Positions 5,520 through 19,830 are shown, counted from the first letter of the stretch. The stretch: 64,000 nucleotides of DNA from an uncultured Dehalococcoidia bacterium (GCA_964405845.1 CAYOPL010000012.1:95583-159582); one strand, 5' to 3'. The notes: generated by a model from the letters alone, not told the origin. Numbers and translations: made by a program.

Positions 5520-5657
5520 GAGCCCCCGCATGTTTCGATAAGCACATTCTCGGGCCGCAAGCCTGTGTCCACTATAGATAGCCGTTTTGCAACTGCCAAT
5601 ACGTCACAGCCCGATTTATCTATCATAGAGGCGCAAGTGAGACCCTTTCTCAGGATC

Positions 5658-7310
5658 ATGTCAATCGTTCAAACGGCACTCGATAAACTTCCAGTTCGAC
5701 CCTCGTACAGCTGGGGCCAACTGCGCGGTGACGTTTTCGGCGGGCTAACCGCGGGCAGCATCGTCCTGCCCGCCTCCATCGGCTATGGTCTGATTTCCGG
5801 TCTGGGTGCCGTCGCCGGGCTCTATGGAGCTGTGGCGGTTAGCCTCTTTGGCGCGCTCTTTGGCGGCACCCGGGGGATGATCTCCGGCCCGAATATTCTC
5901 GTTACCCTGACGATGGCCGCCGTCGTCTCCCAATACGCCAACAGCCTTGCCGAGGCCGCAACGGCAGCCATTCTTGCCGGTCTGATTCAGATGGGCTTTG
6001 GCGCTCTACGGCTTGGGCGCTATGTCTCCTATATTCCGTATTCCCTGATTGCCGGGTTCTTCACGGCCTTTGGCATCCTTTTGATCATCAAACAAGGACT
6101 GCTTGCCTTCGGTGCATCCGCGGGCGGTACTGCGCTCGACAGCATCCGTGCATTTCCTGATGCGGCGCGAGACGCCAACCTGGAGGCCCTCGCGGTCGCG
6201 ATTTTCTGTGTTGCGTTGGGAGTGGCGTGGCGTGGAAGACTCTTGAAGATTGCCCCGTCTCAATTTGCCGTACTCGTCTGCGGGACAGTCGTGGGCGTTT
6301 TGTTCTTTGCAGGGGCGCCGACTATCGGGGCTATCCCACAAGGGCTGCCCGCGCTGGAACTGCCCCCCTTCTCACTTGATTTGGTAATCCGGCTTCTACA
6401 GCCCGCCTTTGCGATGGCTCTGTTGAGTTCTCTGGCGACACTCATCGTCGCTCTTCCCCTGGATACGATCACAGGTACCCAGCACAAGCCCAATCAGGAA
6501 TTGGGAGCGCAGGGCATCGGCAACGTGGCCGCCGGCCTCATCGGTGGCCTGCCCGGCGGCGTAACCCCCGGCACCTTCGTCAACGTGTTCAGCGGAGGAC
6601 GCACACAGGTGGCGGGATTGACCGTTTCCGCCCTTATCATCTCGGTCATCCTCTTCCTTGGCCCGATAGCAGAGCGCATTCCCTTGGCGGTCCTCGCAGG
6701 CATCCTGGCCATCAACGGCTGGAACGTCATAGATTGGCGGTTCGTCAAACGCCTGCATCGCGTGCCTGCCGACTACACAATCGTGATGCTCCTCACGTGT
6801 TCTCTCGTGCTGTTTGTGGACATCACTCTTGCGGTGGTAGCCGGTGTCGTCGTCTCCGCGATGACCGGCGCGAGACGGCGCGAGAAAATGGAAACCGAAA
6901 CGCTCATCTCCGCCCCTATTCTTGACAGCGTGTTCCTTGAGGACGATGAGGCAGACCCTTTCGAGGCGCGTGCGGGCATCGTTATTTTCCCTGATCGCGT
7001 CACGGTGGCCTCAACCCGTGAGGTGAGCCGCATCGTCCGTTCGGACATCCTCGGGCATCAGGTCGTCATCTTTGACATGTCCCGCACCTTCTTCATCGAC
7101 GATTCCGCTGCGGTGGCCATAGCGGACCTCATCAGGATCGCCGCTGTTCGCCGCCCGGGCCGCCTTGTCATCGCAGGACTGACAAGACCGGTCACGGAAA
7201 CTCTTGACGCCTTCGGTCTACGTGCCGCCTTGCCGGAAGGATTGATTGTTCCGGACATGGACACCGCAAGAGCCCGCGTACGCGACTTACTGGCCACCCG
7301 TTCACCCTGA
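5658..7310 (+). CDS. SulP family anion (sulfate/bicarbonate) transporter with a C-terminal STAS domain.
   Basis: MSIVQTALDKLPVRPSYSWGQLRGDVFGGLTAGSIVLPASIGYG... is a SulP signature, with multiple TM segments. The C-terminal STAS region reads VIFDMSRTFFIDDSAAVAIADL. The start was refined to the ATG at 5658, since the track ORF from 5316 overlaps the PKS start. The stop TGA lies inside the REP-like repeat. Confidence 0.85.
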   Translation: MSIVQTALDKLPVRPSYSWGQLRGDVFGGLTAGSIVLPASIGYGLISGLGAVAGLYGAVAVSLFGALFGGTRGMISGPNILVTLTMAAVVSQYANSLAEAATAAILAGLIQMGFGALRLGRYVSYIPYSLIAGFFTAFGILLIIKQGLLAFGASAGGTALDSIRAFPDAARDANLEALAVAIFCVALGVAWRGRLLKIAPSQFAVLVCGTVVGVLFFAGAPTIGAIPQGLPALELPPFSLDLVIRLLQPAFAMALLSSLATLIVALPLDTITGTQHKPNQELGAQGIGNVAAGLIGGLPGGVTPGTFVNVFSGGRTQVAGLTVSALIISVILFLGPIAERIPLAVLAGILAINGWNVIDWRFVKRLHRVPADYTIVMLLTCSLVLFVDITLAVVAGVVVSAMTGARRREKMETETLISAPILDSVFLEDDEADPFEARAGIVIFPDRVTVASTREVSRIVRSDILGHQVVIFDMSRTFFIDDSAAVAIADLIRIAAVRRPGRLVIAGLTRPVTETLDAFGLRAALPEGLIVPDMDTARARVRDLLATRSP

Positions 7311-7451: not shown

Positions 7452-8618
7452 CTACCCCCAGACGTTCTGAGCGGTCTCCGCGACAACCCGCAGCTTCGCG
7501 TTCTGCTCGTCGATACTGAGGCGATTGCCAACGATGGACGTGCCGAACCCGCATTGCGGGCTAATGGCCAACTGCTCGCGCGGGAAGTGATGAGCCGCCT
7601 CGGCGATTCTGCCTGCAAGCTCTGAAGGCGTCTCGGCGCGCGGTGTCTTTGTCGTAACTAATCCCAGCGCCACCGTCTTGTCGTCTGGCACGCCGCGCAA
7701 AGGTTCGAATGAGCCTGAGCGCTCATCGTCGTACTCCAGCATGAGCCGATCCGCGTTGACGCGCTGAAGCACCGGCTCGACAATCCGGTCGTAACCGCCT
7801 TCGGCCAGCCAACGGCTGCCCTGATTGCCTCGTCAAAGATGGAACGCGAACGTCACATCCGTGAAGCCGTCCATCACCGCGTTGTCCAGCTCAATCCCTT
7901 GCGTGATCCAGTCCTCTCCGGTCCGACCCTGGGACTCGTAGAACGCTGCCCATGTCGGATCGAGGATAAGAGGGTAGTGCGGGGCGTCGAGCTGGATATA
8001 CGTTGCGCCGAGCCTAATTAGCTCTTCGATCTCCTCGCGGATGATCTGTGCGACGTCACTCAGAAACGCATCAAGCGTGGGGTAAGCCTCAATAGACTTA
8101 CTCGGCGACCAGAAATTAGCGAATAGGCTGGGACTCGGCAGGGTCACCTTCAGCATGCGCGTCGTGCGGCCCCGGAGATACGTAAACTCTTCTGCCGACA
8201 GGTGACGCTTGCGCCGCAGCTTGCCGACGACACCGAGCGTCGCTGGCCGCTCCTTGGGGGCGTTCCCCACCCGCTCATCGCCACGCCAATCACCCCAGAG
8301 AAACGCGTCAATATCGAACTCACCGAATCCTTCCACCGCCTCGGGCATCTGGCTTTGGAAAGACAACCGCCGCATCTCGCCGTCCGTGAGAACCTGTAAC
8401 CCGGCGTCCTCTTGCGCCGCAACCGCGCCATCAACCGCGGCGTCCTCGATGCGCTTGAACTCTGAAGGCGTGATTCGTCCGGCCGCAACGTCCTCGCGTG
8501 CAGCGAGCAACTCCGGCGGCCTGATCAGGCTCCCAACCACGTCGGCATGCGGCAAATTCGGCATGCTGCGGAGTGTTGCATATCGCCGGGGCTTGGGCAA
8601 GCGATTGATGGTAGTCAT
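7452..8618 (-). CDS. Protein of the MetE C-terminal-domain family (cobalamin-independent methionine synthase / homocysteine methyltransferase-like, Zn-dependent). A single in-frame TGA at 7833-7835 interrupts the frame; it is either a candidate selenocysteine codon or a nonsense mutation.
   Basis: Track ORFs 7833..8681(-) and 7452..7772(-) are in the same frame (8681-7772=909). The translation ...IQLDAPHYPL...DVTFAFHL-TGA-RGNQGSRWLAEGGYDRIVEPVLQRVNADRLMLEYDDE...LAISPQCGFGTS matches MetE C-domain motifs: IQIDE, the H-x-C Zn site, the Glu ligand, and NPDCGL. The LPHADVVGSLIRP segment near the N-terminus resembles the MetE LPTTTIGSFPR motif. The start is uncertain; ATGs at 8618 and 8564 are both possible. 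Confidence 0.7.
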
Positions 8619-8630
8619 TCCAGATAAAAG

Positions 8631-8674
8631 TTGCATGCACAATAAATGTGTCTGATAATAATTGTTATATGCAA
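8631..8674. promoter_or_regulatory. AT-rich imperfect palindrome TTGCATGCACAAT-N17-ATTGTTATATGCAA in the divergent intergenic region between the MetE-like gene and marR. It is a candidate MarR operator or shared promoter region.
   Basis: This is a low-GC island in a GC-rich genome. Inverted half-sites can be read directly. It lies about 85 bp upstream of the MarR start at 8760. Confidence 0.35.
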
Positions 8675-8759
8675 ATAACAAGGACCGTCTGAAATCTCGG
8701 CTGCTTGGGCGCAGCGTACATGCTCTATACTGACCTCAAATCACCATGGCGATATACGA

Positions 8760-9245
8760 GTGACAGACAACCACGATCAATCTCAGGGCGGCAATGACTC
8801 CTCGCAAGAGGCGCAGCCTATGGGCTTGGGTATCCAGGTGACCAGCCTGATGAACGCGGTTCTCAGGGGCGCTGCGACTGAATTGGAGCCCTACAACATT
8901 ACTCCTTTGGAGTTCACAGCCTTGCGCATTTGCATGGCCAGGGGTGAGACCACCATGACGGAGTTGGCAGTCGTATTGCCTGTCGATACCTCCCGCACAA
9001 GCCGCACCGTGACCGGGCTGGTTGACAAGGGCTTGCTCCGCAGGCGCCGACGCCGAGACGACCGGCGTGTTGTCATGCTGCGGCTTTCCGAACAGGGAGT
9101 TGAATTGACGTCCACGCTCCAGGCCCTGCTGCAGGCCTTCGATGCCAAACTGACGGAGAACGTCACTGAGGATGAACTAAGCGTATTCGAATCCGTGATT
9201 TCAAGAATCGCGTCCAACTACGCTGCCATGCAGGAGACTGAATAA
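8760..9245 (+). CDS. MarR family transcriptional regulator.
   Basis: A winged-helix MarR signature is present: ITPLEFTALRICMARGETTMTELAVVLPVDTSRTSRTVTGLVDKGLLRR...RVVMLRLSEQG. Confidence 0.85.
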   Translation: MTDNHDQSQGGNDSSQEAQPMGLGIQVTSLMNAVLRGAATELEPYNITPLEFTALRICMARGETTMTELAVVLPVDTSRTSRTVTGLVDKGLLRRRRRRDDRRVVMLRLSEQGVELTSTLQALLQAFDAKLTENVTEDELSVFESVISRIASNYAAMQETE

Positions 9246-9304: not shown

Positions 9305-10144
9305 TTACGAAAACGGCTTGTTGGCAATCGCCTCACCGTATCCGACGGCAAGCAGCGCGCCGGGATCCCTCCGCCACTTCTCATAAGCGACGGCTATGTC
9401 ATCGGCGAGTTTCCTGGTGGCCACTCCGTAGCCAATCGCCTGCTCTCTGAGGCTCGGCGACAGGAACCAGCCGTAGACCAGGCGATGGATAAACTCGATT
9501 TCCTCGACCGAGTCGAATATGTCGAACGTCGCATTCATTCTAATGTTGGCAAATCCTGCCTTGAGAAGCTGGCCCTTTAGTTCCTTGCCCATCTGCGGAT
9601 GAGCATCGTCAGTCGCCAAAATGTCTTCGAACATATCCCATGCTTTCCTGAGAATGCCGAAGTCGGGCTCGGTGAAGCTGGACTCGCAGATCATCTCGCG
9701 GCAACCGATGATGCCGCCGGGTTTCAGGACTCGCATCACCTCTGTCAGCACGGCTTCCGTGTCCGGAACGTGCATCAGCACATTGTGGCAGTGGGCGACG
9801 TCGAAGTAGTCGTCCTCAAACGGAAGGTCCGATACGTCGGCAACCTGGAATATCGTGTTTGTCTGACCGCCTGCCTCCGCCACGGATCGCGCCAGGTCGA
9901 TCTGGGATTCCTCCATGTCGACGCCGTGCAGCTCCCCCGGTGAGACAGCCTGTGCCAGGCCAACTGATATGGTGCCGGGTCCGCAGCCGAAATCCAGAAC
10001 GCGAAGCCCCGGCCTCAGATAGGGAAGCAGATAGGCGGCGTTCTTCTGTGCGGTGAACCGCCGCATAGTCTCAACAAACTCATGGCCGAAGCCCATCGTG
10101 TAGTCGGGGGTTGAAGATGTGCGCTCAGTCATAGTGTCATTCAT
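9305..10144 (-). CDS. Class I SAM-dependent methyltransferase (Methyltransf_11/25 type).
   Basis: The motif I sequence VLDFGCGPGTIS is present, followed by HGVDMEE, the acidic FDVAHCHNVLMHVPD, and the post-II LKPGG. Confidence 0.8.
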   Translation of the reverse strand: MNDTMTERTSSTPDYTMGFGHEFVETMRRFTAQKNAAYLLPYLRPGLRVLDFGCGPGTISVGLAQAVSPGELHGVDMEESQIDLARSVAEAGGQTNTIFQVADVSDLPFEDDYFDVAHCHNVLMHVPDTEAVLTEVMRVLKPGGIIGCREMICESSFTEPDFGILRKAWDMFEDILATDDAHPQMGKELKGQLLKAGFANIRMNATFDIFDSVEEIEFIHRLVYGWFLSPSLREQAIGYGVATRKLADDIAVAYEKWRRDPGALLAVGYGEAIANKPFS

Positions 10145-10294
10145 GGACGTTCTGATCGTTCAGTCCGGACAACATGATTCCGCAAACACAACCCTGTAGG
10201 GCTGAAGATATGACACAATCCTGGCGCGCACCCTTTCCCCAGGTTTTCGCCTCTCGGGTTACGTTGATGATTGGGCGGGGGGTCTAAAGTAGCC

Positions 10295-10376
10295 TATCAC
10301 TCGGATATAACCGTCCCGTAACTGTTTCACCGATTTCCTATGACTTTGTGTAACGATTCAGAGAACTCCGCCAGAA
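10295..10376 (+). promoter_or_regulatory. Regulatory cassette copy A: three direct GTAAC(T)ATTC-like sites (ggatataaccgt / ccgtaactgtttc / gtgtaacgattc), followed 17 nt later by a -10-like cagaat.
   Basis: Its architecture matches copies B-E, with site spacing of about 12-13 and about 35 bp. Confidence 0.4.
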
Positions 10377-10694
10377 TCGCCACCCCCGCTCACCCTGAGC
10401 CTGTCGAAGGGCGGGAATAATCCCCCATTTTTCGCGCCACGGTCATCGAGGTGCGATCGCGGGTGGACACGCTACTGGCGCCCCCGTGTCGGGATCCGGG
10501 GGCTGCTCAGGCCCAGAAGGCGGGTCTGGGAACAGGTAGAGACTTTTGGGGTGCGACAGCGTAACGACCAAAGGGAATTTCGAGGTGTGGTCGCCACCGG
10601 ACTTATGCTGTTGCCGGCACAGGCTTTCGCCGTACAAGGGCCCCGTGGGGCGCCTCCCGACATTGCACTGCGAATCTCGCCGAGTGCCACTATA

Positions 10695-10775
10695 CCACTC
10701 GGATATAACCGTACCGTAACTATTCGTCCGATTCGGCATCACTTCCTGTAACTATTCCAGGAACTCCGCCAGAAT
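10695..10775 (+). promoter_or_regulatory. Regulatory cassette copy B (ggatataaccgta / ccgtaactattcg / ctgtaactattcc + cagaat).
   Basis: Direct repeats can be read in the sequence. It lies immediately 3' of gene 10809..11654(-). Confidence 0.45.
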
Positions 10776-10808
10776 CACTACGCCCGCTCACCATGAACTT
10801 GCCGTGGG

Positions 10809-11654
10809 TTAGCGCCAAGCCGCGCCCCTCGGGTGCATCCTTACACAGTAGGTGCTTCCTATCGAAGTCCACCGGGCAGGGGTTCCCGCCGTGTAGTACC
10901 CGTCACGGGGACAGACGTATTCTTTTGGAGTTGTAGCCGCATACCGGGTCTGGTCCAGCGTCATTCTTGAGTAATCGGGCACTACAGACCATTCGTTGCC
11001 GTCGTTCGGACAAGCATAGTTGGAGTCTTTGCTGGCCTTTACGAACCCTCCGTTGGAATCAGTGCGGACGCAAGATTCAGTGTCCTGTCGGCTGAACGCA
11101 AAACGCTCTTGAACGGACGCGCAGTATTTGGACAACCCTGAACTGGCCAGATCACCCACTCCGTAAGGCGAAAAGTATGAATAGACAGCACTGAGCAGGA
11201 TGCCAATGTTAGGCGCGTTTATCGTCGCCACCCCCGGGATATCCAGGAATGGGAATCCCTCTCTGTTATCAGAGTAGAAGCTCGAATAGATTACGCACGC
11301 AGCCTTCGCAGGTGTCTGTGTGGCCCGTCGCGGAGTTGAAGGAGACGTGCCTTGTGTCGGTGGTGTCGTTGCGCGTGGAGTTGGAGTGGCGGTGGCCTCG
11401 GGCTGCCCCGGGCCGTCATCCTCGTCCTCATCGCCATCCTCGTCGCCGTCCTCGTCTTCATCCTCCTCGTCCTCCTCTTCCGGAACCGGAGTCGGAGTGG
11501 CGGTCGCCAGGACAGGCGGCGGCAGCAAAGGACCCGGATTGCCCGGATCGGGAAGATCAGGCAGAGCCATCACAGAGGCGGCTGTCAGCATCAGCGATGC
11601 CATCAAGGCAATCGTTACAACAACACCAAGGGAAAATCGTCCACGCTTGCTCAT
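10809..11654 (-). CDS. Secreted protein of unknown function. It has a signal peptide, a Pro/Thr-rich linker, a poly-acidic (E/D) low-complexity linker, and a C-terminal Cys-rich domain of about 160 aa.
   Basis: It begins MSKRGRFSLGVVVTIALMASLMLTAASVMA (signal peptide), followed by the EEEDEEDEDEDGDEDGDEDEDD tract. The C-terminal domain has 6 Cys (CVIYSSFY...YCASV...CVRTD...YACPNDG...YVCPRDG...YCVRMH). I recognise no known domain. Confidence 0.6.
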   Translation of the reverse strand: MSKRGRFSLGVVVTIALMASLMLTAASVMALPDLPDPGNPGPLLPPPVLATATPTPVPEEEDEEDEDEDGDEDGDEDEDDGPGQPEATATPTPRATTPPTQGTSPSTPRRATQTPAKAACVIYSSFYSDNREGFPFLDIPGVATINAPNIGILLSAVYSYFSPYGVGDLASSGLSKYCASVQERFAFSRQDTESCVRTDSNGGFVKASKDSNYACPNDGNEWSVVPDYSRMTLDQTRYAATTPKEYVCPRDGYYTAGTPARWTSIGSTYCVRMHPRGAAWR

Positions 11655-12451
11655 CAGCTGCCCCTCCTTTCCTGGGAAGCAGTCGAGTACGCGTTATAGG
11701 CGGCCACCGCCGCCTCGTGAGCCTCCGTGTAGCGGGCGTAGAGCGCCTCAAGACGGTCCAGGCCGTCCTGATCAGTCGGGCAGGTTGAGACCGCCTCAAC
11801 GCTGCCGCACAGGGAAATCGCCAGCTCTTTGTACTCACGCTCAGCGCTCGAACGCTCCTCAAGTCGTGAATAGCTCTCATGGGCAAGACTATAGAAGGCG
11901 ACGTCCTCGGTGAGCGTTGCGGCCGTCTCTGACAGTTCCCGATGTTCGACAAAGAGGGTGTCGTAGCGACCCTGGATGTCCGCCTTCTCTCGCGACAATG
12001 AAGCAACGGTGGCTTGCAGCCGTTCACGCTCCTGGTCGCTCCGGGAGACGACCAGCGAATAGCGCGTGTTCTCGGCCTTCAGATCATTGCGGACATCTTC
12101 CAGGCCCTCGCGTTCCGCGCGTTCTCTCTCTAGTGCGGCCTCGGAGTCCACGAGCTGCCGCCCGGTCTCCTGCACGACCGAAGAAAGAGAATCGCGCTCA
12201 TTTCCCAGTGAGATTTTCGTTGCCCGCTCCACCTCAAGCGCAGCTTCGTTCTCGCTGAGATCCAGCGTGGTCGCGTTGAGTTGGCCCCGCGTCCCGCTCA
12301 GTTCATTCAGGGAGATGGCCAGCCCAATGCTGGCGGCGCCCAGAAGCGCGATCGCGAGAATCAGTCCAACGATCCGCTTGTTGTTCGGCGCGCTGTCGAA
12401 AGCGACAACGGCCATAGCTATTCCAAGGCTCAATCTGCTCATAACTCGCAT
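11654..12451 (-). CDS. Membrane-anchored coiled-coil protein of unknown function.
   Basis: An N-terminal TM segment (LSLGIAMAVVAF ... IVGLILAIALLGAASIGLAI) is followed by a long charged heptad-like region (ALEVERATKISLGNERD...LERERAEREGLEDVRNDLKAENTRY...). The start ATG at 12451 has an AAGGAAAGGA SD upstream; the track start at 12511 is TTG. The stop overlaps the start of the downstream gene by 1 nt, indicating an operon. Confidence 0.55.
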   Translation of the reverse strand: MRVMSRLSLGIAMAVVAFDSAPNNKRIVGLILAIALLGAASIGLAISLNELSGTRGQLNATTLDLSENEAALEVERATKISLGNERDSLSSVVQETGRQLVDSEAALERERAEREGLEDVRNDLKAENTRYSLVVSRSDQERERLQATVASLSREKADIQGRYDTLFVEHRELSETAATLTEDVAFYSLAHESYSRLEERSSAEREYKELAISLCGSVEAVSTCPTDQDGLDRLEALYARYTEAHEAAVAAYNAYSTASQERRGS

Positions 12452-12784
12452 GGCACAGGTCGACCATCCTTTCCTTCTTAGTGGGTGCAGCCGGCGCTTG
12501 TCCAAGCGCAAAAAATGTAGGTGAATGCCGAGAGAGAGGTTAGGGACTAATGCTCCATTCTCACGCTGTCAGCCCTCGTGTTGGGAGCGAAGGCTGCGCA
12601 GACCCATAGCGGGCCTGGATACAGGTGGAACCTATGGAGTGCAACAACACAGCGATCGCGAAAAGGCTCCCCGCGCGGTAGCCACCGGACGTGACGCTGC
12701 GTTGGCACAGTATTTCGTTGTACAAGGGCCAAGTGGGATGCCTCCCAACATGCACTACGAATCTGACCGAGGGCTACTATACCA

Positions 12785-12862
12785 CGCGAATATAACTATT
12801 CCGTAACTATTTGGCTCCCTCTCTATCACTTTTCGTAACTATTCGCCGAAAAGCAACAAAAT
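12785..12862 (+). promoter_or_regulatory. Regulatory cassette copy C (gaatataactatt / ccgtaactatttgg / tcgtaactattcg + caaaat).
   Basis: Three direct repeats sit between gene 12944..13996(-) and gene 11654..12451(-). Confidence 0.45.
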
Positions 12863-12881
12863 CAATGCCGTAGCGCACTTA

Positions 12882-12932
12882 CCCGCTCACCCTGAGCCTT
12901 CGCCCCGCTCACCCTGAGCCTGTCGAAGGGTG
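12882..12932. repeat. REP-like repeat; two tandem module A copies.
   Basis: cccgctcaccctgagccttcgcc + ccgctcaccctgagcctgtcgaagggtgagcc. Confidence 0.75.
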
Positions 12933-12943
12933 AGCCCCAGTCG

Positions 12944-13996
12944 CTACGCCCCCAGGGCCATAAGCACTCCCTCAAGCCCCGCCAGTTCCTCCTCATTCAG
13001 GCACGCGAACAGGTCGAATCCGGCGATGGCCGCCTCGTTGAAATCGACGGACGAGGACTGCGAAGGGTCGCCGCCAATGGGGGAGGCGATGGTAGCGATA
13101 TAAGTCGGGTGGCTGCGGATGAAGTCGCCCGCGCACGCCGCGGACGCATCGCTGAGATCTCCAATCTGGGCCTCAGTGGCAGCGAGCAGGAACGCGACGA
13201 CGCTATCCAACTCAAGGCATTCGGCCGCGCTGACGCCAAGCCCCGCTGCCCTGAGCGGCGTTGTGCCCACCATCGCTACGTACTCCGCCTCGGAGAGCGT
13301 GTCACGCACGCAGGACGCTTCAGACTCTGAGAGCAGGGCCACAAGGTCTTCCCCCGTGAGGGGTGAGAGATTGTCGATAGAGGTGTAGAGCTCGATCAGA
13401 GCGACTGCTTTCTCGTTCTCCGTCATGCAGTCGTAGAAGCCGACAAGGATGTCGCGTGTCTCCTCGCCGTCGAACGTGGTTGTCTCCGGCAATTCAAAGC
13501 CAAGGCGAGCGTAGATGAACTCAGGGTGTTCGAGGGCAAAGTCGGCGATGCACGCGCGGCTTTCGTCGCTGCGTCCACCGGCTGCGGCGTCAAGGAACGC
13601 GACGCCAACAAGCACAGCGTTCTCAGGGGTCAGGCATCCGAATATCGACGCGGCAGCCGCAGGATCTCCGCCGCCTGACGCGAGCAACGGAAAGCTCAGC
13701 ATGGCCTCGTACACGGCATCGCCCAAAACGCCCCTGATACAGGCTGCCTCCTGTTCAGCGAGACGGTCGAACAGGTCTTTGCCCGTGGTTGTCGGGCCGA
13801 GGACGAAGTCCCGCATCGAAAGGACTTCCGGAACGGGTGTCGGCGTGGCCGTCGGAAGCGGAGTTGCCGTAGCAGTCGCCGTGGGTTCCGGGGTAGGCGT
13901 CGGCGGCTCCGAGCATCCAATGAGCGTTAGTGCCAGGAGGAAGATTACTCCCGCGGCAAGTAGTTTGAATCGCAGCATTCCCGTCTCTCGGTGCAT
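12944..13996 (-). CDS. Lipoprotein of unknown function with 3-4 internal repeats of a Cys-containing alpha-helical module of about 90 aa.
   Basis: The signal peptide plus lipobox is LALTLIGCSEP, followed by a Pro/Thr linker. The repeated modules are ACIRGVLGDAVYEAML / ACIADFALEHPEFIYARL / SCVRDTLSEAEYVAMV / ACAGDFIRSHPTYIATI. The start is either the ATG at 13996 or 13978 (MLRFKLLAAG). Confidence 0.6.
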   Translation of the reverse strand: MHRETGMLRFKLLAAGVIFLLALTLIGCSEPPTPTPEPTATATATPLPTATPTPVPEVLSMRDFVLGPTTTGKDLFDRLAEQEAACIRGVLGDAVYEAMLSFPLLASGGGDPAAAASIFGCLTPENAVLVGVAFLDAAAGGRSDESRACIADFALEHPEFIYARLGFELPETTTFDGEETRDILVGFYDCMTENEKAVALIELYTSIDNLSPLTGEDLVALLSESEASCVRDTLSEAEYVAMVGTTPLRAAGLGVSAAECLELDSVVAFLLAATEAQIGDLSDASAACAGDFIRSHPTYIATIASPIGGDPSQSSSVDFNEAAIAGFDLFACLNEEELAGLEGVLMALGA

Positions 13997-14047
13997 ATTC
14001 AGTGTTTCAACTCCGGGTCGTACCCGCCTCTTCGCCTCGCGGCGTAA

Positions 14048-14143
14048 TTCCGTATAACCCTATCGCATCCATACAACCAATCCGTAACTATTCGGCTGCC
14101 TATCTATCACTTCTTGTAACCATCCGCCGAAATATCGAAAAAT
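14048..14143 (+). promoter_or_regulatory. Regulatory cassette copy D (ccgtataaccc / tccgtaactattcgg / cttgtaaccatcc + aaaaat).
   Basis: Three direct repeats sit between the adhesin gene stop (14193) and the lipoprotein gene start. Confidence 0.45.
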
Positions 14144-14192
14144 CCCTGCCCTCCCGTTCACCCTGAGCCTTCGGATCAGGCGTGCGCCGCCA

Positions 14193-16934
14193 TTAATCGT
14201 TCGGACGGGCGGTGCGGGTGAAGGACCATTCACCCCAGCCGTTGGCGTTCTTGGCCCGGACTTCGACCTCGTAGCGCGTGCCGCCGGTGAGGCTAGAGAT
14301 TCTCTGCTGCCTTGGATTGCTGCACCCGACGGATGGATCACAGATGCGCTGGGCCGGGCGCGGGAAGAGCACGGTGCCCTCAGTCCAGGTGGTGGCCCCC
14401 GCTGCGCGGTGGCGCACCTGGTAGGCGTAGGGCAGCGAACCGGTGGTGACCAGGTCCCACTCGACGAACAGGTTCTGGCTGCTGCCGGGGATGACCCTGA
14501 CTCGCGGCGGTATCACGGTCGTGGTGTTGCCGGCGGCCAAGGTGACGGTGAGGATCTCCGACTGGAAGCCCAATTTCGGCGAGTCCGTGGTCATCGGATC
14601 GTTGTCATTGCCGTCGGTGCGGGCGCGGACGTGGACCTGCCAGGTCCCGTTGGCCAGGCCGGTAAACGTGTGGCTGCGGTCGCTCACGCCCTTGACGGTG
14701 TTGGTCCAACTCCCGCTGGTGCCGGAGCGGTGGCGGACGATGTATTGGTCGATGCTGCCGACAGCGCCGATGGTGCTGGCTTCGCCCCACTCGACAACCA
14801 GCTTGCTGTTGCCGCCGGACGCGAACACCGCAGGGGCGCCCGGTCCGCCTTCCTCGCCGGAACTCTGGGTAGAATTGGTAGTCGCGCCCTCAATCGCGTG
14901 CCGGGCGAAAACCGAGATTGACCCGGTGGCTTCAGGCCGGACCAGGGTCCCTTTGGGGCAGTTTACTGTATCAGTTCCACCGCCGTCTGTGACGTCGCAG
15001 GTGGTCGTACCCCATTCCTTATTGCTTTTGGTTGTAATGAAGACTTGGCCGCCGATATGCTGAGGCCCGGTAGTGAACCAGACCTGGGTCGGCTCGGACC
15101 AGACCCGGGTGGCCGGTAGCCAGACCGACCAGGCGTTGGTGGCGGTCGAGGCGGGTTGGCCGCTGGCGTGGGTGCGGGCGGCGACGCGGACGGTGTAGTA
15201 CGCGCCGTCGGTCAACCCGGTGATGCGGTGAGCTGTGGCGGTAGCAAGTGCAGTGGCGCTGCTCGCGGTTCCGCTGCAGCCCGTCGTGCTGTTGGGATCG
15301 GGACAGGCCTTCCATTCCACAACAAATCCGACCATCGTGCGTCCCGTCGGCGTAGTGAACGAGTCCCAGTCAACTTCGATGCCATTGTTGTTGTTGGCCA
15401 CCGCAGTCACGCCGGACGGGCTGTTTGTGGCGGCGGTCGCCGATGGGTCCTGGCCGGTGATCGTGACCCTCTGGCCGGTGGTCGAGTACTTATCGTCGGA
15501 GGCGTCGTAGGCGGAGATGCGGAAGTCGTAGGCGACGTGGGGCTCGATGCCGTAGAAGATGAAGTGCGGCTGGCTGGCGTCGGTCTGCGTGTCGACGTAC
15601 CTCCACGGCAACGCGCTGTAACCGCGCCAGTAGTCGTCGCTGGAACGCTTGAGTTCGAGGTCGAACGTCTCGCGGGCCTCGCAGCCGGTGCCGTTGACGC
15701 TGGTGATCCGGCCGCTGACGGCGTTGCGGGCGTAGGGCTTGATCGCGAGCGTGATGCAGGCGTCCGGCACACTGTTGGCTTCCATCACGATGTAGTCGTC
15801 GGAGTCGCCCTCGTCGTACTGGATGCGCACGGAGAAGACGTAGTCGCCCGGGGTCAGGCCGCGGAAGGTGTGCGTCCGCGTCTCAGGGGAAACTGAGGCG
15901 GTCCAACTGACGGGACTCGACTCGCTGATGGCGGAGAGGACGAAGCCGGTCACTTCGCAGGACTCGTCCATGTTGTCGGGCAGCGTCCAGGAGACGACCG
16001 CGCCCTTGCCGATGGTCAGGGCGGAAACCGAGGAGGGCGCGGTTCGCTGGCAGTACACCTCGGTATCGTCGGAGGGCTCGAGTTGCCAGTTGACTTTGTG
16101 ACCTGAGTCGTGGGCCAGGCCGGAGTGGGCAAGGTTGGCGGCAGTCCCCGTGGCGGAGGACGCGATTGTGCCGCCGTTGAGCCTGAGGGAGTTGGGGAGG
16201 ACGGCTATGCCCTGGGTGGAGTAGTTGGGTTCTACGACGGTGTGGGCGAAGGTGAGCACATTTGCAGCGACGCCTGGCACGTAGGAGGCCCACTTGGTCC
16301 CCCAGTGGGCAGGGTCCATGTCAATGGCGATCTGCGGTGTTCCAGTGACCGTCACGTCTTCGCTAAAGGCGACCGACACCTCGATCACCTCGCCGTTGGC
16401 GTAGGTGTCGTCCTCGCCGGGGTTGGAGGTGATCGCGACGGCGGGCACGGTGGGCCCGGTGGGCCCGGTCACTTTCCAGTTCACCTTGTGGTTCGCGTCG
16501 TGGTCCAGTCCGGAATGGGACAGCGTAGCCGCTGTCCCCGATGAGACGGACGTGATCGAACCGCCGTAGAGTCTGAGGCTGTCCGCCAGCACGGCGATGC
16601 CCTGCGTGGAGTAGTTGGGTTCGACCACGGTATGAGCGAAGACGATGCTGCTGCCGCCGCTGCCGCTGTTGTAGAAGGCCCATTTCGTGCCCCAGTCGGC
16701 CGGGTCCATGTCGATCTTGATATACGGCGTGCCGGTGACGTTCACCGTTTCGCTGAAGGTCAGCGTCACGCGGATGTTCTGACCTAAGGCGTAGGTCTTG
16801 TCGGGGCCGGCGCCGGAGGTGATGGCCACGCCGGTCACTGAAGGGCCGTCCGCGGCGTTCACCGAACTGCCTCCCCACAAGGACACGGCGAGAGCCGCGA
16901 GGAAGAGGACAAGCACGGCTGCGGTGCGGCGCAA
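14193..16934 (-). CDS. Large secreted cell-surface protein (adhesin-like). It has two tandem N-terminal repeat domains of about 150 aa, followed by several fibronectin type III / Ig-like beta domains.
   Basis: The signal peptide is MRRTAAVLVLFLAALAVSLWGGSSVNA. Repeat 1 (VTGVAITSGAGPDKTYALGQNIRVTLTFSE...MDPADWGTKWAFY...HTVVEPNYSTQGIAVL...HKVNWKV) is duplicated as ...VAITSNPGEDDTYANGEVIEVSVAFSE...MDPAHWGTKWASY...HTVVEPNYSTQGIAVL...HKVNWQL. The downstream regions are FN3-like, rich in T/S/G with W..Y..V..R patterns. Confidence 0.65.
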   Translation of the reverse strand: MRRTAAVLVLFLAALAVSLWGGSSVNAADGPSVTGVAITSGAGPDKTYALGQNIRVTLTFSETVNVTGTPYIKIDMDPADWGTKWAFYNSGSGGSSIVFAHTVVEPNYSTQGIAVLADSLRLYGGSITSVSSGTAATLSHSGLDHDANHKVNWKVTGPTGPTVPAVAITSNPGEDDTYANGEVIEVSVAFSEDVTVTGTPQIAIDMDPAHWGTKWASYVPGVAANVLTFAHTVVEPNYSTQGIAVLPNSLRLNGGTIASSATGTAANLAHSGLAHDSGHKVNWQLEPSDDTEVYCQRTAPSSVSALTIGKGAVVSWTLPDNMDESCEVTGFVLSAISESSPVSWTASVSPETRTHTFRGLTPGDYVFSVRIQYDEGDSDDYIVMEANSVPDACITLAIKPYARNAVSGRITSVNGTGCEARETFDLELKRSSDDYWRGYSALPWRYVDTQTDASQPHFIFYGIEPHVAYDFRISAYDASDDKYSTTGQRVTITGQDPSATAATNSPSGVTAVANNNNGIEVDWDSFTTPTGRTMVGFVVEWKACPDPNSTTGCSGTASSATALATATAHRITGLTDGAYYTVRVAARTHASGQPASTATNAWSVWLPATRVWSEPTQVWFTTGPQHIGGQVFITTKSNKEWGTTTCDVTDGGGTDTVNCPKGTLVRPEATGSISVFARHAIEGATTNSTQSSGEEGGPGAPAVFASGGNSKLVVEWGEASTIGAVGSIDQYIVRHRSGTSGSWTNTVKGVSDRSHTFTGLANGTWQVHVRARTDGNDNDPMTTDSPKLGFQSEILTVTLAAGNTTTVIPPRVRVIPGSSQNLFVEWDLVTTGSLPYAYQVRHRAAGATTWTEGTVLFPRPAQRICDPSVGCSNPRQQRISSLTGGTRYEVEVRAKNANGWGEWSFTRTARPND
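15990..16850. repeat. Intragenic tandem duplication of about 430 bp x2 encoding the two N-terminal repeat domains of the adhesin-like protein.
   Basis: Near-identical peptide blocks (HTVVEPNYSTQGIAVL, MDPAxWGTKWA) occur twice. Mirrored + strand track ORFs overlap the same region. Confidence 0.6.
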
Positions 16935-17014
16935 GGACAGGGCAGGGGCTGTGTTGGAGAGCCTCGTGACGTCACCTCATCTCTATCTTTTTGCCAGTTC
17001 GTCCGAGTCTACCA

Positions 17015-17092
17015 AGTAGCTGTAACTATCCCGTAACTATTCGACCGACTCCCCATCACTTCTTGTAACCATCCACCAAAATACGCATAATT
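17015..17092 (+). promoter_or_regulatory. Regulatory cassette copy E, which includes a good sigma70-like promoter (TTGTAA-N17-CATAAT) for the hybrid kinase/regulator gene. The sites are gctgtaactatcc / ccgtaactattcg / cttgtaaccatcc.
   Basis: The -35 TTGTAA lies at 17063-17068 and the -10 CATAAT at 17086-17091, with a 17-nt spacer. The same triple-repeat layout is seen in copies A-D. Confidence 0.5.
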
Positions 17093-17171
17093 GCCCGTAG
17101 AAACGCAGACTCCAACGCCCACTAGGGACGAAACCCACGGGGTATCCCGAGGCCCATTAAGAGGTGACAAG

Positions 17172-19535
17172 TTGAGTCAACAAGACCAGCTGATGCGAGA
17201 GGTGGCGGAGCTTCGAGAGCGTCTCTCCAGGCTGAGCGAGGCTGGCTTCCGCATCAACGAGAGCTTGGACTTCGACACGGTGTTGCAGGAGGTGGTGGAC
17301 AGCGCCCGGACGCTGACCGACTCACGCTACGGGGCGATCACCATCCCGGGCGAGGTCTTCCGACGCCCCACGTTCATCACCTCTGGTCTGACCGAGGAGG
17401 AGCACCAGGGGCTGTGGGACATGCAGGAGGGACTGGGGTTCTTCGAGTATCTCAGCGGCCTGGAGGAGCCCCTGCGGGTCTCTGATATCGACAGCCATCT
17501 GAAGGCATTGAACATGCCTGCATTCCTGCCCTCGGTGGTGGTGAGTTCCGTGCTGGTAGCCCCGATACGCCATCAGGGAGTTGGTGTGGGCACCATCTAT
17601 CTCGCTCATGGCCCTGACGGTGGGGAGTTCACCCAGGAAGACGAGGACACGCTGGTCCTGTTCGCTTCCCAGGCGGCGATGGCCATCGCCAACGCTCGCA
17701 GGCACCGGGAAGAGCGGCGGGCTCGAGCAGACCTGGAGACCCTCTTGGAGGCGTCCCCCGTTGGCGTCGTAATCCTCGATGCCGTCATGGGAGTGCCGAA
17801 ATCCTTCAACAAGGAAGCTAGGAGAATCGTGGGCAGCCTGCTCAATCCTGACCAGTCCCCGGAGGACCTCATCGACCTGGTGACCTACAGGCGGGCCGAT
17901 GGTCGAGAGGTCACCCTGCGAGAGTTCCCGATGACCGAGATCCTCACCACCCGGGAGACCGTACGGGCCGAAGAGATCGTCATGAGTGTCCCGGACGGCC
18001 GCAGCGTCACTACCCTTGTTAACGCCACACCCATCTTCTCGGATGAAGGTGAAGTCGAGTCGGTAGTCGTCACTTTTCAGGACATGGCCAACGTGGAGGA
18101 GATGGCGCGGCTGCGAGCCGAATTCCTGGCGATGGTTAGTCACGAGTTGAGAACTCCTCTGACCTCCATTAAAGGTTCTGTCTCCACAATCATGGATGCG
18201 GGGGCGGACCTTGACCCCGCCGTGGCTCGCCAGTTCGTTCGGATTATCAATGACCAGGCCGACCACATGAACGCCCTGGTTGCAGACTTGCTCGACGTGG
18301 CCCGCATTGAGACGGGCACGCTGCCGGTTGATCCTGAGCCTGCCGAGGTGGCCGTATTGATGGACAGGGCGCGGAGCGCCTTCGTCAGTTCTTCGGGAGA
18401 CAGGAACAACTTCACAATAGACATCGAGCCGGATCTGCCTCTGGTGATGGCGGATAGGCGGCGCATCGTCCAGGTGCTGGGCAACCTGCTTTCTAACGCG
18501 GCGCGAAATTCCCCGGAGTCGGCGGTCATCAGGGTAACCGCTGTGCGGGATGGTGTTCATGTTGCGTTCTCTGTGGTCGACGAGGGACGCGGCATCCCGG
18601 CGGAGAGCCTGCCGCACCTGTTCCGCAAGTTCTATGGAGCGCAGTCCGAGGAGCAGGGAGGAGACACGGGGCTGGGTCTGGCCATCTGCAAGGGCATTGT
18701 GGAAGCGCATGGCGGCCGCATCTGGGCTGAGAGCGACGGGCCCGGAATGGGAGCGCGTTTCACCTTCACCCTTCCTGCGCTCGAAGACTCCGGAAACGAC
18801 ACAGCCGGTAGATTCCCGCCGGTCTCAACGCGACGTGAAGAAAGGGAAGAGGAGCGGCTGCGCGTTCTGGCCGTGGACGACGACCCCAACGATCTCCGCT
18901 ACGTTCGTGACACTCTTGCTAGGTCGGGCTATGCCCCCATCTTGACCGGAGACCCGGAGGAGGCGCTCCGTCTCGTGGAGGAGGAGAAGCCGGAACTCGT
19001 GTTGCTTGATCTGATGCTCCCGGAAACGGACGGCATCGAGCTGATGAAGGACATCCTCGATGTGACCGATGTGCCGGTTATCTTCCTGTCCGCCTACGGA
19101 CGAGAAGAGCTCATCGCCAGGGCCTTCGACATGGGGGCCACCGATTACGTCGTGAAGCCCTTCTCCCCCACGGAACTCTCAGCCAGGATCAGGGCGGCCC
19201 TGCGAAGACGCGCGGCCGCAGAGCCGACAAAACCTTACGTGCTCGGCGATCTGACCGTCGACTACGCCGGGCGCAGGGTGACCCTCGCCGGGAATCCTGT
19301 CCATCTCACACCGACTGAATATCGGGTGCTGGCCGAACTCTCGGCCAGCGCAGGACAGGTGATGACATATGAGCGCCTTCTCGTTCAGGTTTGGGGCGAG
19401 AAAAGCGACGGTGACGTGCGCCCAATGCGCACTATCGTGAACAAGCTCCGCCGCAAGCTGGGAGAGGACGCGGAAACCCCCACCCGCATCTTCACCGAAC
19501 CCCGCGTCGGCTACCGTATGCCGAAAGGCGAGTAG
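17172..19535 (+). CDS. Single-protein two-component system. The domain order is coiled-coil/GAF - PAS - HisKA - HATPase_c (sensor histidine kinase) - REC receiver - OmpR/PhoB-type winged-helix DNA-binding domain.
   Basis: The H-box reads EFLAMVSHELRTPLTSI, and the ATPase region contains GLGLAICKGIVEAHGGRIWAESDGPGMGARFTFTLP. The REC domain reads LAVDDDPNDLRYVRDTLARSGYAPILTGDPEEALRLVEEEKPELVLLDLMLPETDGIEL. The trans_reg_C region reads LTPTEYRVLAELSASAGQVMTYERLL...VRPMRTIVNKLRRKL...RVGYRMP. The probable start is TTG 17172 (SD AAGAGGTGA upstream) or ATG 17193; the track ORF begins at an in-frame TTG at 17091. Confidence 0.85.
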   Translation: MSQQDQLMREVAELRERLSRLSEAGFRINESLDFDTVLQEVVDSARTLTDSRYGAITIPGEVFRRPTFITSGLTEEEHQGLWDMQEGLGFFEYLSGLEEPLRVSDIDSHLKALNMPAFLPSVVVSSVLVAPIRHQGVGVGTIYLAHGPDGGEFTQEDEDTLVLFASQAAMAIANARRHREERRARADLETLLEASPVGVVILDAVMGVPKSFNKEARRIVGSLLNPDQSPEDLIDLVTYRRADGREVTLREFPMTEILTTRETVRAEEIVMSVPDGRSVTTLVNATPIFSDEGEVESVVVTFQDMANVEEMARLRAEFLAMVSHELRTPLTSIKGSVSTIMDAGADLDPAVARQFVRIINDQADHMNALVADLLDVARIETGTLPVDPEPAEVAVLMDRARSAFVSSSGDRNNFTIDIEPDLPLVMADRRRIVQVLGNLLSNAARNSPESAVIRVTAVRDGVHVAFSVVDEGRGIPAESLPHLFRKFYGAQSEEQGGDTGLGLAICKGIVEAHGGRIWAESDGPGMGARFTFTLPALEDSGNDTAGRFPPVSTRREEREEERLRVLAVDDDPNDLRYVRDTLARSGYAPILTGDPEEALRLVEEEKPELVLLDLMLPETDGIELMKDILDVTDVPVIFLSAYGREELIARAFDMGATDYVVKPFSPTELSARIRAALRRRAAAEPTKPYVLGDLTVDYAGRRVTLAGNPVHLTPTEYRVLAELSASAGQVMTYERLLVQVWGEKSDGDVRPMRTIVNKLRRKLGEDAETPTRIFTEPRVGYRMPKGE

Positions 19536-19712
19536 CCGGCGAACAATAAAACCTCGTTGTTCCTGCACCTTTCCCGGCTGGATGACTCAGACCAAAACTA
19601 CGACTAACTTCCGGCCGATAGTGATGTAGTAGCCGCTATTGACGCAGTAAAGGTAAAGGCGACCTGACCCGAAAGGCTGGCGTAACCAACCCAGCCCAAT
19701 TACAGCAAAAAA

Positions 19713-19784
19713 TACCCCTGCCGGGACTCGAACCCGGGCCACCAGCTCCGGAGGCTGGTGCTCTATCCGCTGAGCTACAGGGGC
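19713..19784 (-). tRNA. tRNA-Arg (anticodon CCG).
   Basis: The reverse complement GCCCCTGTAGCTCAGCGGATAGAGCACCAGCCTCCGGAGCTGGTGGCCCGGGTTCGAGTCCCGGCAGGGGTA folds as a cloverleaf. The anticodon loop CUCCGGA carries the anticodon CCG, and the T-loop reads GGTTCGAGTCC. CCA is not encoded. Confidence 0.9.
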
Positions 19785-19830
19785 ATGATTACGCCTTGCG
19801 GCGCCCCACCATCATACCCCGCTCAGTTGG

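Follow-up and report, generated by a model that had tools for sequence, protein, structure and literature searches.

The locus described here lies in a stretch of 64,000 nucleotides (the window) from an uncultured Dehalococcoidia bacterium (GCA_964405845.1, CAYOPL010000012.1:95583-159582). Between positions 10809 and 16934, four co-directional open reading frames (ORFs), named A to D, occupy the minus strand, and the gene of a combined sensor kinase and response regulator diverges from them on the plus strand (Table 1). An earlier inspection of the DNA (the sequence-only reading) had placed four such genes at these positions and had described their products as exported; the genes are there, and all four products look exported. 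By reading of the translations, A and D carry Sec-type signal peptides, B a lipobox and C an N-terminal membrane helix. A control cassette of 78 bp recurs around these genes. The host is an uncultivated Dehalococcoidia bacterium and, to judge from the naming series of its metagenome-assembled genome (MAG) and the sample labels, probably a sponge symbiont.

Table 1. Features of the locus and of its surroundings in the window (aa, amino acids; PWM, score against the cassette position weight matrix)
Feature	Position	Strand	Description
Gene A	14193-16934	-	ORF of a 913-aa secreted protein; signal peptide, 2 x 130-aa repeat, then FN3-rich region
Repeat copies in A	16461-16850 and 16071-16460	-	130 aa each, ~63% identical
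Gene B	12944-13996	-	350-aa lipoprotein; lipobox Cys28, Thr/Pro linker, two all-helical modules of ~140 aa
Gene C	11654-12415	-	Membrane-anchored coiled-coil protein; 253 aa from ATG 12415, as called in public assemblies
Open frame of C	11654-12511	-	285 aa in full; 265 aa from ATG 12451
Gene D	10809-11654	-	281-aa secreted protein; signal peptide, Pro-rich motif, acidic run, Thr/Pro linker, Cys C-terminal domain
Acidic run of D	11415-11480
Cys-containing C-terminal domain of D	10812-11312
Regulator gene	17091-19535	+	GAF-PAS-HisKA-HATPase_c-REC-Trans_reg_C in a single polypeptide (Pfam); likely start ATG 17193
Putative regulator promoter	17063-17091	+	TTGTAA-17-CATAAT
Cassette c5	16995-17072	-	Four half-sites, extended -10 TGGTAGACT facing A; PWM 91 bits
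Cassette c4, between A and B	14046-14123	-	-10-like TAGGGT at 14057-14062, ~53 nt before the ATG of B; PWM 81 bits
Cassette c3, between B and C	12765-12842	-	Extended -10 TGGTATAGT at 12776-12784; PWM 106 bits
Cassette c2, directly after the D stop	10678-10755	-	Extended -10 TGGTATAGT; PWM 105 bits; position kept in all syntenic loci
Cassette c1, upstream of the methyltransferase gene	10280-10357	-	Extended -10 TGATAGGCT; PWM 89 bits
Plus-strand elements of c1-c4 (examples)	10349-10378, 10747-10776, 12834-12863, 14115-14144	+	Antisense direction, toward the 3' end of the gene upstream
Leader before C-D	12556-12771	-	Conserved, noncoding, ~215 nt; 5' part of the ~350-nt untranslated region between c3 and C
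Paralogous leader copy	10469-10684	-	Downstream of c2
Methyltransferase gene	9305-10144	-	Class I S-adenosylmethionine-dependent methyltransferase, 279 aa; Pfam families of its orthologs; 73-95% aa identity; conserved neighbour of C-D
MarR-family gene	8760-9245
MetE-like gene (Meth_synt_2), split	7833-8681 and 7452-7772	-	282 aa and 106 aa
SulP ORF	5316-7310
Polyketide synthase, N-terminal part	879-5531	-	Runs toward the left end of the window
tRNA-Arg (CCG)	19712-19785	-	Directly downstream of the regulator gene; sole RNA gene of the window at Rfam gathering thresholds
REP-like repeat CACCCTGAGCCTGTCGAAGGGTG	12882-12935	.	Directly after the B stop
REP-like fragments	14152-14179, 10782-10809, 10384-10411		The first after A, the second after D
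REP-like copies	7303, 10391, 12888, 12910, 14159, 34656, 34790, 38760, 56294, 58428	+

A 39-nt cassette pattern matched the window five times where 0.00 matches were expected, always on the plus strand and between 10.3 and 17.1 kb. One site precedes A, the gaps A-B and B-C hold one each, one directly follows D, and the fifth precedes a methyltransferase gene. Cassettes were aligned from 11 sequence sources (25 copies; the window and 10 fetched loci, labelled L, of which two are contigs from a single MAG). In the direction of the exported-protein genes, their consensus reads AT.GTTACAagAAGT.ATg-(11)-aATAGTTACgG.AtgGTTATAT-N6-TGgTAta.T. It contains four GTTAC-type direct-repeat half-sites spaced by 11, 22 and 10-11 bp, the last ending 9 bp before an extended -10 element (TGnTAnnnT) that faces the exported-protein gene. 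Half-sites and TGnTAnnnT are kept throughout the alignment while the spacers vary. With its phasing of about 10-11 bp and repeats that abut the -10 element in place of a -35 element, the arrangement has the geometry of a pho-box-like operator. Orthologous copies of c3 are present in L002, L004, L005, L006 and L017.

The protein encoded by the divergent gene is the candidate for reading this operator. Residues 592-810 match Response_reg (E 3e-25) and Trans_reg_C (E 1.6e-18), the receiver and output domains of the OmpR/PhoB family, and the phospho-acceptor Asp (LLDLMLP) and the H-box (SHELRTPL) were both recognised by inspection. The MtrA, PhoB and RpaB models match the C-terminal part, but all NCBIfam equivalogs score under their cut-offs (MtrA 173.8 against 300, PhoB 159.7 against 296, RpaB 152.2 against 330, PnpS 209.4 against 400). 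No hydrophobic segment that would suggest a membrane passage was seen in the translation. Orthologs of the regulator are 83-88% identical and always adjoin a cassette, which lies upstream of the gene in all nine regulator-bearing sources (the window, L002, L004, L005, L006, L008, L013, L014 and L015). On the plus strand, c5 overlaps the -35 element of the putative regulator promoter, whose TTGTAA-17-CATAAT is conserved in seven of these nine, and the right flank of c5 (...AAATACGCATAATTGCC...) is conserved in seven genomes. Because of this overlap and the conserved flank, the regulator gene very probably shares the operator and is autoregulated.

A scan of the window and all loci with the position weight matrix found no weaker cassette above 25 bits beyond the known copies, and the strict pattern, run against one genome per GTDB species, recovered seven stretches, all from Dehalococcoidia MAGs. 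An unlinked copy in L016, a second contig of the MAG that contains L006, lies 50 nt upstream of a gene whose 683-aa product has a signal peptide and, at its C-terminus, a He_PIG Ig domain. The element is therefore also found away from the regulator gene, and again before an exported protein.

The interpretation we favour, with moderate confidence, is that the locus is a compact, lineage-specific regulon of exported or surface proteins, transcribed as separate units under the divergent kinase-regulator. The sequence-only reading had called the four genes operon-like, and this is not supported: A, B and C-D each have their own copy with an extended -10 element, so they do not form an operon-like unit of four. 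The gaps measure 196 nt (A-B) and 432 nt (B-C), each with a promoter-like cassette, and among four syntenic loci A occurs in one and B in none. The related claim that the cassette separates all the genes holds for A/B and B/C but not for C and D, which overlap by one base (TGATG, shared between the C stop and the D start) with no cassette between them and which alone behave as an operon. Two-component control, which had also been proposed, appears to be the best reading, given the divergent REC and Trans_reg_C gene and the phased direct repeats, which precede that gene and every exported-protein gene in each related genome inspected. The regulon is most likely small and expanding locally, unlike a single operon.

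Mechanistically, the regulator would bind the 78-bp cassette, probably as two head-to-tail dimers. Cassette c5 would act in both directions, toward A and as the regulator's own promoter, which would provide autoregulation, and the cassettes would drive A, B, C-D, and a leader RNA together with the methyltransferase as separate units. Cassette binding by the regulator, and the direction and start of transcription, are points that we infer from the sequence. The sequence itself shows which genes and domains are present, how the cassette is built, the synteny and the sizes of the families. The exported proteins may have a surface or host-facing role.

Genes C and D are tiny orphan families and always adjacent: C has eight clusters and D eight relatives among 5.8 billion clustered proteins, a profile of the D C-terminal domain gave four matches at E <= 1e-10 among 1.84 billion representatives, and all relatives come from Dehalococcoidia MAGs. 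The one-base overlap of C and D recurs in every locus, including distant homologues in other neighbourhoods. There, C homologues of 58-62% identity lie in the neighbourhood CysS ... SecG, GatB and are followed by a D-like gene with overlapping stop and start; a diverged cassette-like promoter, below the matrix threshold, was recognised upstream by eye. C had been described as a 265-aa membrane-anchored coiled coil; its single N-terminal membrane helix agrees with this and the frame does give 265 aa from an upstream ATG, although the public call is shorter (Table 1). Only weak coiled-coil matches to SMC/Rad50 were obtained for C in NCBIfam.

The N-terminus of D holds a conserved Pro-rich motif, LPDPGNPGPLLPPP, and is followed by the acidic run EEEDEEDEDEDGDEDGDEDEDD, which is present exactly as the sequence-only reading quoted it. 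In D relatives this run is shorter or absent, which marks it as a variable linker instead of a defining trait. Six Cys do follow the linker, as had been noted; the family as a whole shares just four of them (C120, C178, C248 and C270) as invariant positions, and the other two sit in an insertion absent from shorter homologues. The first 58 residues are 74-91% identical among relatives and the C-terminal domain 31-45%, and in L019 the D N-terminus is joined to an unrelated C-terminal domain of ~300 aa that resembles, by eye, part of the L016 protein. The D C-terminal domain thus appears to be fast-evolving or swapped. The D C-terminal domain gave a poor structure model (pLDDT 57, mostly strands) with no meaningful structure matches, and a PDB sequence search with the D profile returned nothing significant.

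The domain that, by eye, is common to the proteins of L016 (2192-4243, +) and L019 (2827-4080, +) is unannotated and carries the signature GC(N/S)xHR...TWTDDAP...YPPY.... It stands behind a cassette on the unlinked contig in the first case and is fused to the D N-terminus, in the position of D, in the second.

Because a constant N-terminus and a variable C-terminus are combined here with translational coupling to a membrane-anchored coiled coil, we propose that C and D form a docking and display complex. C would be the stalk, D would dock to it through the conserved N-terminal Pro-rich segment, and the fast-evolving or exchangeable C-terminal head of D would be displayed at the cell surface. 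A polymorphic toxin or contact-dependent inhibition (CDI) system is not indicated: Pfam, NCBIfam and PADLOC contain no toxin match for D, and downstream of D lie a cassette and a noncoding leader.

Gene A is the one product with a familiar domain, contrary to the statement that none of the four carries an assignable motif. It matches fn3 (PF00041) in four stretches at 96.4 bits against a cut-off of 25 bits (E 1e-27), and Pfam gave no fn3 match for B, C or D. The predicted FN3/Ig-like character and internal tandem duplication were both found, but the repeat unit is 130 aa and not 150 aa: residues 29-158 and 159-288 are ~63% identical, with a period of 390 nt. The repeat matches phrog_30287 (3e-20) and phrog_11617 (7e-10), phage protein families of unknown function, and no Pfam model; a PDB sequence search with it gave nothing significant. 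Outside the window it was found in L002 and L013 only, and it has no match in the giant proteins beside the B homologues of L008 and L009. The sole A ortholog, in L002, begins at an ATG 11 codons further upstream, where the window has ACG (16934-16967, -). A itself probably starts at TTG 16934, or uses a non-canonical start.

Gene B was described as a repeat lipoprotein of Cys-containing helical modules. The lipoprotein nature (...LALTLIG-C28, LIGC, by inspection), the helices and the Cys stand, but there are two modules of ~140 aa instead of three or four of about 90 aa. Each module carries four Cys (86/121/149/190 and 229/260/288/332), six of the eight being invariant among 46 homologues, and the structure model is predicted with confidence to be all-helical (pLDDT 86, pTM 0.76). 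B has no Pfam match, and a PDB search with its profile gave nothing significant. The family comprises 64 members, nearly all from Chloroflexi, in varied surroundings. A homologue in L008 (83% identical) lies ~6 kb from a regulator gene and has its own cassette, whereas that of L009, beside cobalt-chelatase genes, and those of L010 and L011, within an Opp-type transporter cluster, have none. These last contexts also lack C-D, so the suggested co-occurrence of the D Cys domain with lipoprotein B fails. In L013, from a more distant Dehalococcoidia MAG, an adhesin gene with A-type repeats (5-1783, +) is directly followed by a B-family lipoprotein gene (1786-2652, +), again beside an orthologous kinase-regulator gene. 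This second instance of the A-then-B order makes a looser A-B association possible.

Taken over all four proteins, the novelty that had been claimed is retained for C and D, which are orphans, and for B, which matches neither Pfam nor the PDB, but not for A, which is mostly FN3. Searches of A-D against Pfam, NCBIfam, PHROGs and PADLOC gave FN3 and PHROG matches for A only, apart from PADLOC matches (DndD, PbeC, PD-T4-6; E 2e-4 to 3e-3) that were dismissed as falling on coiled-coil or low-complexity stretches. S-layer homology (SLH), sortase LPXTG and other S-layer or adhesin-anchor families had no match among A-D in Pfam and NCBIfam.

Between c3 and C lies a conserved leader, of which a paralogous copy is found downstream of c2. 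Its nucleotide identity is 94-96% between genomes whose coding genes are 77-95% identical, and it was found in the window, L002, L004, L005, L006, L013, L014, L015 and L017. In L005 and L006 it runs straight into the methyltransferase gene, in L013 and L015 it precedes a MetE-like gene, and in L014 a region without a convincing ORF. A reading of the leaders as small ORFs was rejected, as 1-nt indels separate orthologs and paralogs and no ORF is conserved. RNAalifold on 15 leader sequences gave 36 pairs, with 95% of cells paired compared with 38-52% when the partners were slid. Six pairs are changed on both sides, a number reached by 30 of 500 shuffles and drawn from few independent lineages. 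The leader RNA is thus probably structured, with suggestive covariation, and is a candidate for a new cis-regulatory RNA. Rfam 15 contains no match to it (at E <= 5, three chance-level hits appeared, none on the leader), and a metagenome scan with the leader motif gave chance matches only.

Synteny suggests how the regulon was assembled. Four syntenic loci share the order regulator (divergent), C-D, methyltransferase, MarR, MetE-like, SulP and a giant polyketide synthase (PKS). The loci keep cassettes between the regulator and C and directly after D, and before the methyltransferase in 3/5; the methyltransferase gene would be the fifth cassette-driven unit. The ancestral core would consist of C-D, the regulator and the methyltransferase. 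To judge by their absence elsewhere, A and B are probably later insertions that each brought a cassette, and they would have joined probably via recombination within the cassette: the breakpoints appear to fall inside it, because c5 has the regulator-side flank and c3 the C-side flank.

At the far end of this neighbourhood, the PKS fragment in the window is 93% identical to the >3,100-aa PKS of the syntenic loci, and its N-terminal part at this position implies that the SulP ORF is over-extended at its 5' end. The MetE-like gene is split in the window, as it is in L002 and L004, and is a single gene of 370-422 aa in L006 and L007; the split form may be a pseudogene or a frameshift.

Repeats resembling repetitive extragenic palindromic (REP) elements are also scattered through the window, with 10 copies against 0.39 expected, several far from the locus. 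They often stand directly after stop codons and are read as 'FDKLRVNG'-type pseudo-peptides in spurious ORFs. Their hairpins were considered as intrinsic terminators and rejected (z -1.7 to +1.1, no U-tails, terminator scan below chance); only the copy after B forms a fair hairpin, at z -1.7.

Several observations weigh against the regulon proposed here. Across the GTDB species representatives the strict pattern has only one unlinked site, and the A-like and B-like genes of L013 adjoin the regulator gene without a detectable cassette. No convincing terminators were found between the units, so read-through transcripts are possible, and since every copy of the cassette retains, on the plus strand, a promoter-like xxGTAA-17/18-nAnAAT, c1-c4 may also be transcribed in the antisense direction. 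The link between regulator and cassette is drawn from adjacency, domain type and site geometry, and the sponge origin from MAG and sample names only. The poor model of D (pLDDT 57) lends no structural support to C-D docking.

The plus-strand element leads to an unlikely but specific alternative, in which c1-c4 function on that strand, producing short antisense RNAs into the 3' end of the upstream gene, and the regulator represses instead of activating. All five copies keep the element, that of c5 is the regulator's own promoter, and REP-like sequence lies within 10-40 nt in c1-c4. Outside c5, however, the plus-strand -10 is weaker and varies more (CAGAAT, CAAAAT, AAAAAT), the whole element could have been inherited through duplication of a bidirectional region, and it is the minus-strand extended -10 that is better conserved and then followed by conserved leaders or start codons. 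In c1-c4 the plus-strand element may be a mere vestige, or it may give rise to antisense RNA. Less probable still, the cassette would be an interspersed repeat of a selfish or neutral kind, similar to REP elements or to miniature inverted-repeat transposable elements (MITEs), and the four genes would be unrelated neighbours with unrecognised promoters of their own. The REP-like repeats of the genome, fragments of which abut four of the five cassettes, and the clustering of the copies in one orientation, as local duplication would give, are what such an origin predicts. It accounts poorly for half-sites and -10 elements that are conserved while spacers diverge, for the fixed distance and orientation to the downstream start codon, for the copy that is always upstream of the regulator gene, and for orthologous positions kept in genomes just 77-95% identical in coding DNA; the cassette also lacks terminal inverted repeats of its own.

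The cassette could instead be bound by another regulator, for example the MarR-family protein encoded two genes away, with the kinase-regulator a mere neighbour. We regard this as very unlikely. The MarR gene adjoins the methyltransferase gene in every syntenic locus and is present in L008 too, but MarR dimers bind palindromes, whereas the cassette is built from helically phased direct repeats, the winged-helix mode of OmpR/PhoB. Moreover, the distant C-D loci L019 and L020 keep a cassette-like promoter, and no MarR was called nearby on these short contigs. The least probable alternative is that A to D work together as an operon-like adhesion apparatus, a single functional module of mutually dependent parts. 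Adjacency, common direction, export and a shared control element would suit such a module, as would the adhesin and lipoprotein pair of L013, yet A and B are missing from most C-D-bearing loci, B-family genes occur in unrelated contexts, and the intergenic gaps carry promoter-like cassettes.

A wider synthesis, which we consider doubtful, would combine three proposals: that the cassette doubles as a recombination module, that C-D is a new display system, and that the leader is a new class of cis-regulatory RNA. If the first were true, new exported-protein genes (A, B and that of L016) would join the regulon via the cassette, giving a simple example of how a regulon recruits members. The second would mean that, under pressure from host or phage, the D head is swapped or rapidly diversifies, and the third that a riboswitch-like or protein-binding second layer of control acts on C-D, the methyltransferase and the MetE-like gene.

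Surface regulation in uncultivated Dehalococcoidia of the sponge type is almost unstudied, and the locus offers a readable system. It has a one-protein signalling pathway, an operator recognisable by eye and a small set of targets that varies among close relatives, so that work in vitro or with a heterologous host could directly test the binding of the regulator to the operator, the expression of the targets and the roles of the orphans. Two candidate new families, the C-D pair and the leader RNA, are described in no current database.

Among known systems, the PhoB/OmpR regulons are close in design. In the PhoB-type promoters of the E. coli PhoB-PhoR system, a pho box replaces the -35 element. 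The similarities include a regulator with REC and a winged-helix (Trans_reg_C) output, direct repeats phased at ~11 bp that replace the -35 and lie ~10 bp before the -10, and a regulator gene that carries its own site, implying autoregulation. The present locus differs in that a single polypeptide joins kinase and regulator and takes cytoplasmic GAF/PAS input, in that four half-sites form two pairs one helical turn apart and read GTTAC(A/G), not CTGTCAT, and in that the targets are exported orphan proteins. The cyanobacterial RpaB/HLR1 system, whose OmpR-family regulator reads GTTACA-like direct repeats, provides a lead only. The RpaB model matches the C-terminal half of the regulator (E 1.4e-44), but its 152 bits are far under the 330-bit cut-off, spacing and number of repeats differ, and the kinase is fused here; no orthology is claimed. 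Bacteroides has hybrid two-component systems (HTCS) that sit in the membrane, sense through a periplasmic domain, have an AraC-type output and control polysaccharide-utilisation loci. They likewise unite sensor, kinase, receiver and DNA-binding output in one polypeptide beside the controlled genes, as proposed here, but the present regulator shows no membrane segment, takes its input through GAF/PAS domains and has an output of the OmpR type, and it does not belong to them.

The exported proteins have partial counterparts as well. FN3 and Ig 'eukaryote-like' domains have been discussed for sponge microbiomes, and A resembles such sponge-symbiont surface proteins in its FN3 stretches, at least four, and its Ig-like repeats; related MAGs encode giant cadherin, He_PIG and fn3 proteins in neighbouring loci. 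A is distinct in being tied to a defined cis element and a regulator and in its N-terminal 130-aa repeat, which matches only PHROG families. The periplasmic helical proteins Spy, CpxP and CnrX are also among the closest known systems. D shares with CDI/Rhs-type polymorphic proteins a constant N-terminal segment ahead of a divergent or replaced C-terminal domain, but it is small and has no known toxin or immunity domain, downstream immunity-like gene or matching secretion system. What is already familiar is the type of two-component regulon; what is new is its set of orphan-protein targets in an uncultivated lineage.

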